20,767 nucleotides of DNA from a virus. This document shows positions 5,837 to 12,681 of this stretch, one piece after another. How positions within the stretch are numbered: the stretch's first letter is position 1; every line of letters starts with the position of its first letter. The notes beneath the pieces are model-generated. The model did not search any database, had not been told where the DNA came from, and saw only the letters and a list, made by a program, of their open reading frames with translations. The DNA lies in UHGV virus genome UHGV-2126844; one strand, 5' to 3'. The position numbers and the translations under genes were made by a program.

Positions 5837-6028
5837 TCATACCTGGTCTCTCTCATCTGCTTCTGCTTTCGCCACCATCATTTCCAGTTTTTGTGAAAGG
5901 GATGTGGCTAACGTATGAAATTCTTCGTCTGTTTCTACTGGTATTGGCACAAACCTGATTCCAATTTGAGCAAGGCTATGTGCCATCTCGATACTCGTTC
6001 TTAACTCAACAGGAGATGCTTTGTGCAT
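5837..6028 (-). CDS. Lambda orf63-like small protein (63 aa)
   Basis: 63-aa ORF. Position and length relative to exo match lambda orf63 as recalled; the sequence itself was not recalled independently. Confidence 0.55.
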   Translation of the reverse strand: MHKASPVELRTSIEMAHSLAQIGIRFVPIPVETDEEFHTLATSLSQKLEMMVAKAEADERDQV

Positions 6029-6183
6029 ACAGCCCCTCGTTTATTATTTATCTCCTCAGCCAGCCGCTGTGCTTTCAGTGGATTTCGGATAACAGAAAGG
6101 CCGGGAAATACCCAGCCTCGCTTTGTAACGGAGTAGACGAAAGTGATTGCGCCTACCCGGATATTATCGTGAGGATGCGTCAT
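6001..6183 (-). CDS. Lambda orf60a-like small protein (60 aa)
   Basis: The ORF overlaps the exo start by 4 nt when started at the ATG at 6183 ([29 protein letters not shown]...). The track's 62-aa version starts two codons upstream. Length and position match lambda orf60a as recalled. Confidence 0.55.
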
Positions 6184-6860
6184 CGCCATTGCTCCCCAAA
6201 TACAAAACCAATTTCAGCCAGTGCCTCGTCCATTTTTTCGATGAACACCGGCACCATCTCGTCAAAACTCGCCATGTACTTTTCATCCCGCTCAACCACG
6301 ACATAATGCAGTCCTTCACGCTTCATACGCGGGTCATAGTTGGCAAAGTACCAGGCATCTTTTCGTGTCACCCACATGCTGTACTGCACCTGGGCCATGT
6401 AAGCCGACTTTATGGCCTCGAAACCACCGAGCCGGAACTTCATGAAATCCCGGGAGGTAAACGGGCATTTCAGCTCAAGGCCATTGCCGTCACTGCATAA
6501 ACCATCGGGAGAGCAGGCGGTGCGCATACTTTCGTCGCGATAGATGATCGGGGATTCAGTAACATTCACGCCGGAAGTGAATTCAAACAGGGTTCTGGCG
6601 TCGTTCTCGTACTGTTTTCCCCATGCCAGCGCCTTAGCATTAACTTCCGGAGCCACACCGGTGCAAACCTCAGCCAGCAGGGTGTGGAAGTAGGACATTT
6701 TCATGTCAGGCCACTTCTTTCCTGAGCGGGGCTTGGCTATCACGTTGTGAACTTCTGAAGCGGTGATGACGCCGAGCCGTAATTTGTGCCATGCATCATC
6801 CCCCTGTTCGACAGCTCTCACGTCGATCCCGGTACGCTGCAGGATAATGTCCGGTGTCAT
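6180..6860 (-). CDS. exo: Lambda exonuclease (Red-alpha), 226 aa
   Basis: Full-length ORF; translation [65 protein letters not shown]... matches lambda Exo as recalled. Confidence 0.96.
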
Positions 6861-7300
6861 GCTGCCACCTTCTGCTCAGTGGCTTTCTGTTTCAGGAATC
6901 CAAGAGCTTTCACTGCTTCGGCCTGTGTCAGTTCTGACGATGCGCGAATGTCGCGGCGAAATATCTGGGAACAGAGCGGCAATAAGTCGTCATCCCATGT
7001 TTTGTCCAGGGCAATCAGCAGAGTGTTAATCTCCTGCATGGTTTCATCGTTAACCGGAGTAATGTCGCGTTCCGGCTGACGTTCTGCGGTGTATGCGGTA
7101 TTTTCGACAATGCGCTCGGCTTCATCCTTGTCATAGATACCAGCAAATCCGAAGGCCAGACGGGCACACTGAATCATGGCTTTATGCCGTAACATCCGTT
7201 TGGGATGCGACTGCCACGGCCCCGTAATTTCTCTGCCTTCGCGGGTTTTGAATGGTTCGCGGCGGCATTCATCCATCCACTCGGTAACGCAGATCGGATG
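6857..7300 (-). pseudogene. bet: 5'-truncated bet (Red-beta): only about the C-terminal 140-145 codons remain; homology ends near 7300 with an in-frame TAG immediately upstream
   Basis: Minus-frame translation ...NHPICVTEWMDECRREPFKTREGREITGPWQSHPKRMLRHKAMIQCARLAFG...KATEQKVAA matches the C-terminal half of lambda Bet. Upstream of about 7300 the sequence is unrelated and AT-rich. Confidence 0.85.
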
Positions 7301-7462
7301 ATTACCGGTTCGCTACCAGGGAAGAACGGGAAGGAAAGGTGAGCACGAATCTGATTTTCAAGGAGTGTCGCCAGAGTGCCGCGATGAAGCGGGTGTTGGC
7401 ATTTTATCGCGGCAATTTTCAATAGACTATGTACATAAAAATATCATTTTTTTAATACATGT

Positions 7463-7654
7463 CTAATTATTGGACGAAATTGGTTTTTGCTTTGGTTTAG
7501 TTAGCCTAGCAATCAAGCCAGAGGCAATAATGATGATCCAAGCAATTTGATGCAATGCTACTCCAATATAAGAACCTTTATAGATAATAAAGGCATAGAT
7601 CGCTAGAAACGAAATAAATATCCATAACGAAAGTTGATAAATTTTGGCGCGCAT
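7463..7654 (-). CDS. Small hypothetical two-helix membrane protein (63 aa from ATG; 68 aa from an upstream TTG)
   Basis: Two strongly hydrophobic segments (IYQLSLWIFISFLAIYAFIIY; IAWIIIIASGLIARL) and a Lys-rich tail. Weak RBS. Sits in AT-rich inserted DNA, divergent from the lipoprotein operon. Confidence 0.35.
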   Translation of the reverse strand: MRAKIYQLSLWIFISFLAIYAFIIYKGSYIGVALHQIAWIIIIASGLIARLTKPKQKPISSNN

Positions 7655-7910
7655 ATTTAATCCAATCAATCAGAAAGACGAGTAATCATAGAGGTACTAT
7701 CACCCGGGTAACTATTGCTATTATGAACGGATAGGATAGAGGCTTCAATAACATATGCATCAAGTATGATGGAATATGTAGGTGAAAATGACTTGTGTCA
7801 AATTTGTGGAAATGAGTACCATGTTTCTCTGAAATTGATGTCGTTAATGGCTAGTGATAGTGAACTTTTTTACTTTATAATTCCTTTGGTTATAACAATA
7901 AGGTAAATTT

Positions 7911-8471
7911 ATGAAGAAGATAATATTATTAGCCATGATTATTGGTTCTTTAACAGGTTGCGCTAGTGTGCCACCATTGAATTTTTCAACACCTAACGTG
8001 GGAGTTAGCCAGAAAAAAATAGATGCTGAAATTAAGTCATTAACGGTATCACTTGCTCGTCCAGATGAGCAGAAAGGGGATATCACTGCTGGTATGGAGG
8101 CTATAACTCCAATTTGGCGTGAATCTTTGCAGGAAGCACTCGACCGAATGACTATTTTTCGTGATAGTTCACCAAATACGGTTAGCTTAAATGTTAAAGT
8201 GTTGGCTCTTGACGTTCCTGCTTTTGGTGTTTCAATGACAACTAAAGCAATTGCAAGGTATGAAATAATCAACCGTGCGAATGGTGATATTATATATACG
8301 CAGGATATTGAGTCTACCGGTACTGTTCCAGCCAGTTACGCATTCTACGGTATTGTTCGAGCACGCGAATCTGTTAATCGCGCGGTGCAAAACAACATAA
8401 CGCAGTTCTTGCAAGCATTAGAAAGTGTTGATCTTTCTCGTCCAATGTTTCCTGTTAGGGTAGCTAAATGA
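7911..8471 (+). CDS. Hypothetical outer-membrane lipoprotein (186 aa), first gene of a coupled two-lipoprotein operon
   Basis: Signal peptide with lipobox LTGC (MKKIILLAMIIGSLTGC|ASV) and Ala at +2. RBS AAGG 7 nt before ATG. Stop overlaps the next gene's start (ATGA). Family not recognised. Confidence 0.72.
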   Translation: MKKIILLAMIIGSLTGCASVPPLNFSTPNVGVSQKKIDAEIKSLTVSLARPDEQKGDITAGMEAITPIWRESLQEALDRMTIFRDSSPNTVSLNVKVLALDVPAFGVSMTTKAIARYEIINRANGDIIYTQDIESTGTVPASYAFYGIVRARESVNRAVQNNITQFLQALESVDLSRPMFPVRVAK

Positions 8472-8920
8472 AGCGATTATTCGTAATTGCTCCACTCTTA
8501 GTGTTGGTTGGATGCGCACAAAATATATCGCCAAATAGTTATTCTGTTGGCTCTGTGGGCATGGTTAATCGAACTATCGCTGGTACAGTTATTAGTGCTA
8601 GGGGGGTTGATATCAGTGGGACTTCCGCGTTAGGCGGGACTGCTGGGGCTGCCGTGGGGGCAACCGCTGGTTCTGCGCTTGGTGGGGGAGTTCGTTCTAA
8701 TATCGTTGGTGCCGTTGGTGGTGCAGTCATTGGTGGTATTGCCGGGGCAGCAATCGAATCTTCAGCAACAAAACAAACAGGCATGGAATATGTTGTCGAA
8801 ACTGAGAATGGGAATTTAATGATCATTGTTCAAGGCAAAGATCCGTTATTTACTCAAGGAAGTAAGGTCCTTGTTTTATACGGAAACCCTTCTCGCATAA
8901 TAACAGACCCGCGTCACTAA
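8468..8920 (+). CDS. SlyB-family glycine-zipper outer-membrane lipoprotein (150 aa)
   Basis: Lipobox LVGC. Long Gly/Ala zipper (GGTAGAAVGATAGSALGGGVRSNIVGAVGGAVIGGIAGAAI) and a C-terminal beta-rich segment (GMEYVVETENGNLMIIVQGKDPLFTQGSKVLVLYGN) that aligns by eye with the E. coli SlyB architecture. Confidence 0.78.
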   Translation: MKRLFVIAPLLVLVGCAQNISPNSYSVGSVGMVNRTIAGTVISARGVDISGTSALGGTAGAAVGATAGSALGGGVRSNIVGAVGGAVIGGIAGAAIESSATKQTGMEYVVETENGNLMIIVQGKDPLFTQGSKVLVLYGNPSRIITDPRH

Positions 8921-9012
8921 CATACCTTTTGATTTTGTAAAATCAATTCGTAATAATAAAGTCATCGGAGCTTGAACAACTCCGGTGACTTCTGCGCTAA
9001 ACGGGGACGTTT

Positions 9013-11172: not shown

Positions 11173-12255
11173 TTAGAACTGGTAAACCATACCTACAGCA
11201 ACGATATCATCGGTAGCAACGCCAGATGCTTTCGTGAAATCGCTCTTATCAATCAGGTTGATTTTGTAATCAACAAAAGTGGACATATTTTTGTTGAAGT
11301 AATAGGTTGCACCTACATCAATATATTCAACCAGGTCCTGATCACCCCACGCACCCAAGTCTTTTCCTTTAGATTGCAGGTAAGCAACGGACGGACGCAG
11401 ACCGAAGTCGAACTGATATTGTGCAACTACTTCGAAGTTTTGTGCTTTGTTGGCAATATGGTTATTACCAAAAACAGTCATGTTCTGGGTTTCAGAATAG
11501 GTGGTAGCCAGATAGATGTTGTTCGCATCATATTTCAGACCAGCTGCCCATACTTCAGCATTTTGACCAGATGCATTCAGGCTGTTGTTACCGTAGATAA
11601 CCTGATTATTAGTGCGGTCAGATTTAGCATAGGTTGCACCTACACCGAATCCTTCATACTCATAAGTAGTGGAGAAACCGAAACCATCACCATTAGCTTC
11701 AGTTACGTCAGTGCGGTCATTTTTACCCTGATACTGAGCAGCAAAGTTCAGACCATCAACCAGACCAAAGAAGTCATTGTTACGATAAGTTGCAACACCT
11801 GTGGTGCGACCAGTCATGAATACATCTGTTTGGGTCCAGGTATCGCCACCGAATTCTGGCAGAACGTCGGTCCATGCACCAATATCGTATGCTACACCGT
11901 AGTTACGGCCATAATCGATGGAGCCGTAGTCACCGAATTTCAGGCCAGCGAAGGCAAGACGGGTTTTATCTTTGGAGGAACCTTGAGATTCAGCGCGGTT
12001 GCCTTTGAATTCATATTCCCACTGACCGAAACCAGTCAGTTGATCGTTGATTTGGGTTTCACCTTTGAAGCCAAGACGGGCATAAGTAGTATCACCATCA
12101 TCTGCATCATTAGAGGAGAAGTAGTGCTTAGCATTAACTTTCCCGTACAGATCCAGCTTGTTACTGTCTTTATTATAAATTTCAGCTGCCTGAGCAGACA
12201 TCGCCATCAGTACTGATGCAGCTACAGCAGAAATTGCCACTGTTAATTTTTTCAT
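11173..12255 (-). CDS. nmpC: OmpC/OmpF-family general porin NmpC, apparently intact (360 aa precursor)
   Basis: Start taken at [23 protein letters not shown] (signal peptide); ends ...VAVGMVYQF with the C-terminal Phe typical of porins. Uninterrupted frame. Lies opposite in orientation between Q and the lysis genes. Confidence 0.9.
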
Positions 12256-12681
12256 CGTGAGCCCTTTTTTTGAACTATTATTAAAAAATGATGTCACTGC
12301 GCGATAAATATTCATCTAATCAATGTGATTATTTCAAGATGTAAGTTTTGGTTTCTCATTTGATTTGTGAAGTAGATCTCTATTTTTATCTGAACTTTTT
12401 CTATCGAATCCTATTCATGGCTCTTGGCTGAATAAAAATAAATCTATTAGCCAATTTATATTAATGGCTGTTATTTATAAGTGCTCTATAATTTGAAGAT
12501 TCAATTTAAACCAGCTAAAAATAACGCTGGAAATTATTTGTTGGTTATTTGTTGAGATTTGCTTATGTATTTGTAGTGGTGTTTTCAATACTCGGTAGCA
12601 TTCTCGCAAATATCATTTAGTGGTTTACGTACGTAAAAAATTGGTTATGCTGTTAAGAGTGGTTACTTCGTCACACAGCTT

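Follow-up and report, generated by a model that had tools for sequence, protein, structure and literature searches.

A conserved mobile two-gene cassette coupling a SlyB-family lipoprotein with a lipoprotein of predicted LptE/PqiC-type fold in a DLP12-like prophage

The 20,767-nucleotide viral sequence UHGV-2126844, analysed here at its full length (hereafter, the window), represents a defective DLP12-like lambdoid prophage located beside ybhC. An island at positions 7463-9012, flanked by a remnant of ren on the left and by ylcH on the right, carries two consecutive lipoprotein genes, the products of which we denote LipoA and LipoB:

7911..8471, plus strand: LipoA, lipoprotein of 186 amino acids; signal peptide MKKIILLAMIIGSLTG followed by CAS, lipobox LTG/C, Ala at +2
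8468..8920, plus strand: LipoB, SlyB-family glycine-zipper lipoprotein of 150 amino acids; signal peptide MKRLFVIAPLLVLVG followed by CAQ, lipobox LVG/C, Ala at +2

The start codon of LipoB (ATG, 8468-8470) overlaps the stop codon of LipoA (TGA, 8469-8471) within an ATGA at 8468-8471. The coordinates and the overlap agree with a preliminary description of this DNA, made from the sequence alone, which treated the two plus-strand genes as coupled. The canonical lipoboxes with Ala at +2 that it noted are present as well (LTG/CAS in LipoA and LVG/CAQ in LipoB), and by sequence rules both proteins are predicted to be sorted to the outer membrane.

With more than 500 homologues for each protein, and a separate PHROG family for each, both genes are far beyond chance open reading frames (ORFs). 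The 512 matches to LipoA share 59-87% identity with it and include proteins from Klebsiella, Edaphovirga, Bordetella, Xanthomonas, Stenotrophomonas and Lysobacter, among others; a profile search against 1.84 billion representative sequences retrieved 963 clusters at E≤1e-3, 97 of them at E≤1e-30. A census of one genome per species, covering 185,579 species, yielded 69 distinct LipoA loci that span gamma-, beta- and alphaproteobacteria, one metagenome-assembled genome (MAG) of Desulfobulbaceae and Chthoniobacteraceae (Verrucomicrobia). A LipoB homologue is encoded immediately 3' of LipoA in 64 of the 69 loci. At the 67 resolved junctions, stop and start codons overlap in 57 cases (by 4 nucleotides in 45 and by 1 nucleotide in 12), and the remaining 10 are separated by gaps of at most 4 nucleotides, with a single exception. 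The lipobox is retained in every LipoA and every LipoB at these junctions, and none has Asp at +2. Mean column identity is 67% in the LipoA alignment and the same in the LipoB alignment, and the pairwise divergences of the two proteins are tightly correlated (Mantel r=0.90, reached in 0 of 2000 permutations), indicating that the two genes share their inheritance and transfers and have similar evolutionary rates. All-versus-all clustering of the flanking ORFs, performed in search of a third conserved gene, recovered LipoA and LipoB only, the other large clusters being antisense ORFs within these two genes or synteny internal to Stenotrophomonas. The pair is a conserved mobile two-gene cassette that is not specific to this prophage or to its porin gene. 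The near-constant adjacency and the co-divergence contradict the possibility, raised in the preliminary description, that the 186-amino-acid protein is a housekeeping lipoprotein unrelated to the SlyB paralogue.

Several of the census loci are unusual. In an Acetobacteraceae MAG (L057:6588-7010) and a Porisulfidus MAG (L061:6582-6848), the gene that follows LipoA encodes a protein only 30-34% identical to LipoB, so that pairing seems to be kept even where the downstream partner has diverged much further. In Photorhabdus caribbeanensis (L048), the DNA at 7268-8049, some 700 bases past a lone LipoA gene (6001-6555), repeats itself about every 60 nucleotides; its translated motif recurs about every 20 residues in several frames, and the repeat looks like a CRISPR (clustered regularly interspaced short palindromic repeats) array. 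The cassette and flanks of a locus titled Nocardiopsis yanglingensis, an actinomycete (L030), cluster with Stenotrophomonas loci, probably reflecting a contaminated assembly.

LipoB is, judging from its sequence, a true full-length member of the SlyB family that belongs to a separate subfamily. In a phmmer search against all Protein Data Bank sequences, residues 2-149 of LipoB aligned with residues 3-155 of SlyB (7ojf_A; E=6.2e-15), and BLASTP comparison with Escherichia coli K-12 SlyB gave 33% identity over 157 columns, with YfgH being more distant, in agreement with the earlier suggestion that the second gene is SlyB-like. Members of the subfamily are 63-76% identical to LipoB, which itself matches phrog_13877; the Pfam glycine-zipper models match LipoB below their gathering cutoffs (21.1 versus 24.2 bits). 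An AlphaFold2 model of the monomer, built from 31 subfamily sequences, places a strand at residues 36-49, helices at 55-70 and 75-101, and then four strands, which is the SlyB order of elements, and SlyB (7ojf) was the top and only significant match of this model in a Foldseek search (E=4.6e-8, probability 1.0). Thus, LipoB shares with SlyB (7ojf/7ojg, SlyB13-BamA) the end-to-end alignment, the lipobox, the double glycine-zipper hairpin between strands and the C-terminal ...PR. The globular domain of SlyB is reportedly periplasmic. Unlike SlyB, LipoB is carried on mobile DNA and is nearly always preceded by, and translationally coupled to, LipoA, whereas E. coli slyB has no LipoA-like partner, its neighbours being anmK and the convergent slyA. 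In K-12, yfgH, which encodes a glycine-zipper lipoprotein, is followed by yfgI, and we considered whether the two form an analogous pair; however, YfgI, a charged, low-complexity protein that by eye looks like a coiled coil, is unlike LipoA, and this candidate was rejected.

Structure prediction for LipoA, proposed in the preliminary description as a check, produced a confident model (mean predicted local distance difference test score, pLDDT, 86) with an alpha/beta fold of the type found in LptE, PqiC, PelC and the TraT core. LipoA, whose model shares its fold with the PqiC/DUF330 (PF03886) and LptE families, is the founding member of an unnamed family; its sequence includes an invariant linker, PPLNFSVPNVG, and a helix with the pattern RARESxNR-QNNIxQFLQ. 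The fold-comparison values were 13.3 for XCC0632 (DUF330; 2iqi), 10.5 for PelC, 10.3 for HpaA, 9.8 for LptE, 9.3 for PqiC, 9.2 for CsgG and 7.3 for TraT; comparison with viral protein structures in BFVD gave weak, uninformative matches only. Sequence identity to the LptE/PqiC/PelC/CsgG class is only 7-14%, and a Pfam scan of LipoA and 39 relatives returned no family match at E≤1, including PqiC/DUF330 (PF03886) and LptE. The genomic setting also differs: LipoA genes do not lie beside lptD, pqiAB, pel or csg; across 67 loci there was no linkage to MCE/PqiAB or LptD genes, and LipoB was the sole conserved neighbour. Among the fold relatives, the structure entries name ring oligomers, namely, a dodecamer for PelC and a decamer for TraT, and PqiC and CsgG likewise form rings. 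Proteins with the LptE/PqiC/PelC fold typically act as rings or plugs at the periplasmic face of the outer membrane, where they bind anionic lipid or glycan.

Many NCBI and UniRef entries, as well as the record of phage PhiR30_1, call LipoA 'UDP-N-acetylglucosamine acyltransferase' or 'acyltransferase', a name without support in the sequence or the fold that looks like a propagated misannotation. One RefSeq genome labels it 'YajG family lipoprotein'. The two proteins are 26% identical over 166 residues in a pairwise BLASTP alignment, but the YajG model NF008637 (PRK11627) scored 11.4 bits against a cutoff of 242 and matched the N-terminus only, hhalign covered just the first 54 residues, and no YajG-like Pfam name appeared among the matches of the 40 members scanned (the YajG family in Pfam is PF03923). 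We therefore rejected this assignment; on sequence grounds, any kinship with YajG is very distant at best. Three distant relatives of LipoA (P0305, P0327 and P0355) have an ordinary signal peptide and no lipobox, and bear long C-terminal extensions that appear by eye to be coiled-coil or repeat-rich, suggesting that some larger proteins, secreted or periplasmic, likewise make use of the LipoA domain.

The cassette is found in a broad range of mobile and chromosomal contexts. Among IMG/VR contigs, 21 contain the full E. coli-type island and 13 contain diverged pairs with 52-76% identity and guanine-cytosine (GC) contents of 0.51-0.68. Within phage genomes, it occupies three distinct positions: the ren-ninB gap in PhiR30_1; a site in another phage (L101) that is bordered by the tape-measure gene and a minor tail gene; and next to a cI-like repressor gene, with replication O-like genes nearby, in two high-GC phage contigs (L104 and L109), a layout that ORF similarity extends to a third contig (L112). 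In a lambdoid prophage of Salmonella enterica, the pair precedes ybcO and a Q-like antiterminator gene and is surrounded by toxin-antitoxin modules, and a metagenomic prophage with an integrase also bears the cassette. Elsewhere, the neighbours of the cassette are a P4-like integrase island (Edaphovirga), a SRAP-serine recombinase gene (an Alcaligenaceae genome) and toxin-antitoxin and transposase genes (Bordetella), and in Klebsiella oxytoca it lies near umuDC. The variety of contexts indicates an accessory unit that different mobile elements have captured time and again. Ordinary chromosomal sites are occupied as well: in Stenotrophomonas the cassette lies between a TonB-dependent receptor gene and ispH-lspA-ileS, and in Xanthomonas it adjoins pgaABCD, an occurrence that argues for a generic envelope function over masking of one receptor. 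In the ren-ninB-equivalent region of the Salmonella loci (L122:5388-9776 and L123), YdaS/YdaT, PaaA2-ParE, MazE-PemK, YoeB-Phd and HigB surround the cassette; LipoA is called as 107 amino acids in L122 and as 201 amino acids in L123, and the former copy may be truncated.

In E. coli, the island is present with at least 99% identity and both lipoprotein frames intact in 280 of 5426 complete genomes (~5%). One identical locus, from E. coli JNQH498 (L001; its RefSeq coordinates are shifted by 1601 bases relative to the window), is annotated with genes for an integrase and an excisionase, followed by partial recT/bet, partial ren, ybcN, ninE, ybcO, rusA, quuD, the porin gene, essD, rrrD, rzpD and bor. 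This annotation, together with a scan for promoter consensus sequences, adds two features to the left of the cassette:

7303..7425, plus strand: C-terminal remnant of ren, as annotated in RefSeq for JNQH498; the island starts directly behind its stop codon
7854..7881, plus strand: candidate sigma-70 promoter GTGATA-16-TATAAT, 10 of 12 consensus positions, 30 nucleotides upstream of the LipoA start

At about 7303, a truncated bet/recT on the minus strand is fused to the C-terminal part of ren on the plus strand (region 6857-7425). The deletion that created this bet'/'ren junction removed gam, kil, N, cI, cro, cII, O and P, so that the element is cryptic and lacks the immunity and replication regions. 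All of these genes are retained in PhiR30_1, an isolated, intact relative in which the island is situated between full-length ren and ninB. The preliminary description correctly recognized an inserted island but took the bet remnant for its left neighbour, whereas the ren fragment ending at 7425 intervenes. It also described about 1.5 kb of AT-rich DNA, which is accurate for the left two-thirds only: GC content is 0.33-0.36 over 7400-8200, compared to ~0.53 in the flanks, and climbs to 0.47-0.49 in the Gly/Ala-rich LipoB gene. No known RNA elements were found in the island and no consensus terminator directly after 8920. With pR gone from this cryptic prophage, the cassette would have to be expressed from a promoter of its own, a role that the site at 7854-7881 may play; the -35-like TGATAG has an aligned counterpart in front of the cassette in Edaphovirga and in a phage contig. 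An inspection by eye found no convincing PhoP-box or sigma-E-like motifs upstream of the cassette.

We lean, with moderate confidence, towards an explanation in which the island, situated in the ren-ninB gap, belongs to the 'morons' (phage cargo dispensable for phage growth) and LipoA and LipoB form a stoichiometric outer-membrane complex that builds SlyB-type rings and remodels or hardens the envelope of the lysogen. As in other morons, the insert lies at junctions of conserved phage genes (ren/ninB in PhiR30_1, and the tail-gene site of L101) and is atypical in composition (GC dips to 0.33). By homology to SlyB, the helical glycine-zipper hairpin of LipoB would enter the outer membrane, and LipoB would assemble as oligomeric rings around lipid and outer-membrane proteins. 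Formation of such rings has been described for SlyB and proposed for YfgH; both proteins contribute to outer-membrane stability, and BamA, LptD and porins are purified together with them (bioRxiv 10.64898/2025.12.22.696046). Given that synthesis of the two proteins is coupled and that they co-evolve, we infer that they interact physically, being made in roughly equal amounts and assembled as one complex; by analogy with proteins of similar fold, LipoA might itself form a ring on the periplasmic side, cap the LipoB ring there, or serve it as an adaptor or by binding lipid. Expressed in the lysogen from its own promoter, the complex would remodel or harden the outer membrane and might thereby confer stress tolerance, shield outer-membrane proteins from phages, colicins, tailocins and serum, or both.

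Several observations weigh against this explanation. Housekeeping SlyB functions without a partner, and LipoA occurs without a detectable LipoB in five census loci (L048 and L051, from two Photorhabdus species, L060, L063 and L073) and in one group of IMG/VR viral contigs (L114-116), so LipoA can persist alone. No natural LipoA-LipoB fusions were identified, since the long relatives bear unrelated N- or C-terminal extensions and no SlyB domain. The model of the LipoB monomer is of low confidence (pLDDT 62). The number of promoter-like sites such as that at 7854-7881 does not exceed the expectation from shuffled sequence, and the alignment of upstream regions across hosts is almost devoid of conservation, with no sign of a conserved promoter or regulator site. 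Finally, searches of PHROGs (E≤0.1) and PADLOC produced no match to an exclusion or defence family, the only PHROG matches being to families of unknown function.

A different use of the same proteins, in line with the receptor masking raised in the preliminary description, would be directed mainly against incoming agents: LipoB rings together with LipoA would sequester or cover receptor proteins of the outer membrane, or prevent the DNA-ejection channel from forming. Like Llp, Cor or TraT, the pair would then exclude superinfecting phages or protect the cell from colicins, tailocins or conjugation. We regard such an exclusion module as possible but doubtful. Capture by phages at three distinct genome positions is typical of genes that benefit the lysogen, and toxin-antitoxin modules surround the cassette in the Salmonella prophage; two of 10 sampled neighbours match candidate PADLOC defence models, although we judged these matches too weak to use. 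SlyB is thought to oligomerise around outer-membrane proteins (bioRxiv 10.64898/2025.12.22.696046), BamA and OmpC are receptors of the enterohaemorrhagic E. coli (EHEC) phages described in PMC12502783, and TraT, itself an exclusion protein, has the same two structural elements as the pair. However, neither protein has a sequence or profile link to Cor, Llp or any exclusion-annotated family, and the copies on the chromosomes of Stenotrophomonas and Xanthomonas have no phage genes nearby. Moreover, receptor-specific excluders are normally limited to phages using that receptor, whereas the cassette is conserved at 45-85% across dissimilar cell surfaces. Receptor masking, and any link to nmpC, are suggested by analogy only. 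Envelope hardening fits the chromosomal copies and the phenotypes of SlyB and YfgH, exclusion fits the capture by phages and the toxin-antitoxin or candidate defence neighbours, and these observations do not separate the two.

The remaining explanations depart further from the ring model. An accessory envelope pair might have been acquired by chance from a chromosome and be decaying with no role for phage or lysogen; the prophage is indeed defective, with its immunity and replication genes deleted, and no function for the pair is documented in the literature that we found. We nevertheless consider such a neutral passenger improbable, as the frames are intact in the many nearly identical E. coli copies and in PhiR30_1 with its full lambdoid gene set, and independent capture at several phage positions, combined with the level of column identity, argues for selection. 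Even less probable, in our assessment, is control of LipoB by LipoA, with the latter acting as a chaperone, inhibitor or targeting factor for a membrane-damaging glycine-zipper protein in a toxin-antidote or abortive-infection device triggered by envelope damage. The tight coupling with LipoA first is the usual antidote-toxin layout, the cassette often occurs amid toxin-antitoxin genes and membrane-damaging toxins are known among glycine-zipper proteins, an example being a type VII secretion system effector (PMC12955049). LipoB, however, is a full-length SlyB homologue with a lipobox and predicted outer-membrane sorting rather than a secreted toxin, and an outer-membrane lesion would be a poor route to killing. 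Furthermore, in the loci with only one detectable gene of the pair, it is LipoB that is missing and LipoA that stays, unlike what would be expected of an antidote-dependent toxin in either direction.

Llp of phage T5 and Cor of phi80, N15 and HK022 are small single-gene products specific for FhuA. With the cassette they share being accessory, phage-borne genes for outer-membrane lipoproteins; the cassette, unlike them, comprises two genes and is common outside phages too. TraT, which is responsible for surface exclusion and serum resistance in IncF plasmids (9e2v, 9fs5), forms a decameric ring in the outer membrane that is plugged by lipid and is responsible for exclusion; its LptE-like core is joined to two transmembrane helices (PMC12658005). 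It holds in one polypeptide the two elements that the cassette distributes over two, but has no sequence homology to LipoA or LipoB, so that the resemblance is one of analogy, not membership. In TraT, the loop joining the transmembrane helices is periplasmic and the core is hence on the outer side (PMC12658005). A more speculative proposal, which we consider unlikely, is that LipoA and LipoB constitute a hetero-oligomeric ring, a 'split TraT' traded by phages, integrative elements and chromosomes as a receptor-independent exclusion device, and that this ring, by enclosing outer-membrane proteins, would keep phages from adsorbing or ejecting their DNA and possibly also act against colicins, tailocins or conjugation. 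If so, formation of SlyB-type nanodomains would be a mobile antiviral mechanism.

According to recent work, SlyB-type glycine-zipper lipoproteins protect the outer membrane through ring-shaped nanodomains that surround lipids and beta-barrel proteins; they have so far been represented by single chromosomal stress genes (SlyB, YfgH). The cassette defines a second form, a SlyB subfamily tied to a partner of predicted LptE/PqiC fold and horizontally mobile across at least two phyla. Should the two proteins prove to form one complex, the SlyB mechanism would gain a new component, a widely misannotated family would be explained, and a two-gene system would be available for asking whether lysogenic conversion or exclusion by phages makes use of such nanodomains in the outer membrane. 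The material is at hand, given that the cassette is carried by about 5% of complete E. coli genomes and by the isolated phage PhiR30_1. Our literature searches retrieved no publications on the LipoA or LipoB proteins or on phage-borne SlyB homologues, none naming the RefSeq protein accessions or the PV340558 record, and no mention of SlyB in the listed papers on prophages or superinfection exclusion; the EHEC phage paper (PMC12502783) cites the SlyB study for its BamA purification protocol only.

Two further ORFs of the window figured in the preliminary description:

7463..7669, minus strand: small ORF from the ORF list, 63 amino acids (ATG at 7654) or 68 amino acids (TTG at 7669), with two hydrophobic segments
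11173..12315, minus strand: porin gene, full length in comparison with solved OmpC/OmpK37 porins (residues 44-380, end to end)

The divergent ORF and its two hydrophobic stretches exist as described for a 63-amino-acid two-helix membrane protein, but its membership in the module does not hold. Its relatives form only five clusters, 86-98% identical, and all those named by organism are from E. coli. It is present in all 21 E. coli-type IMG/VR contigs with full-length LipoA and in PhiR30_1 but is missing from every non-E. coli locus examined; we accordingly rejected this E. coli-only orphan as part of the cassette. Pfam, NCBIfam, PHROGs and PADLOC returned no family match, and the RefSeq annotation of the identical JNQH498 locus has no coding sequence at this site. 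The statement that the element carries an intact porin gene is borne out by the full-length alignment to the OmpC and OmpK37 structures. The true start of the 380-amino-acid porin ORF is probably a downstream Met, and the equivalent gene has an internal stop in JNQH498 and is split in PhiR30_1.

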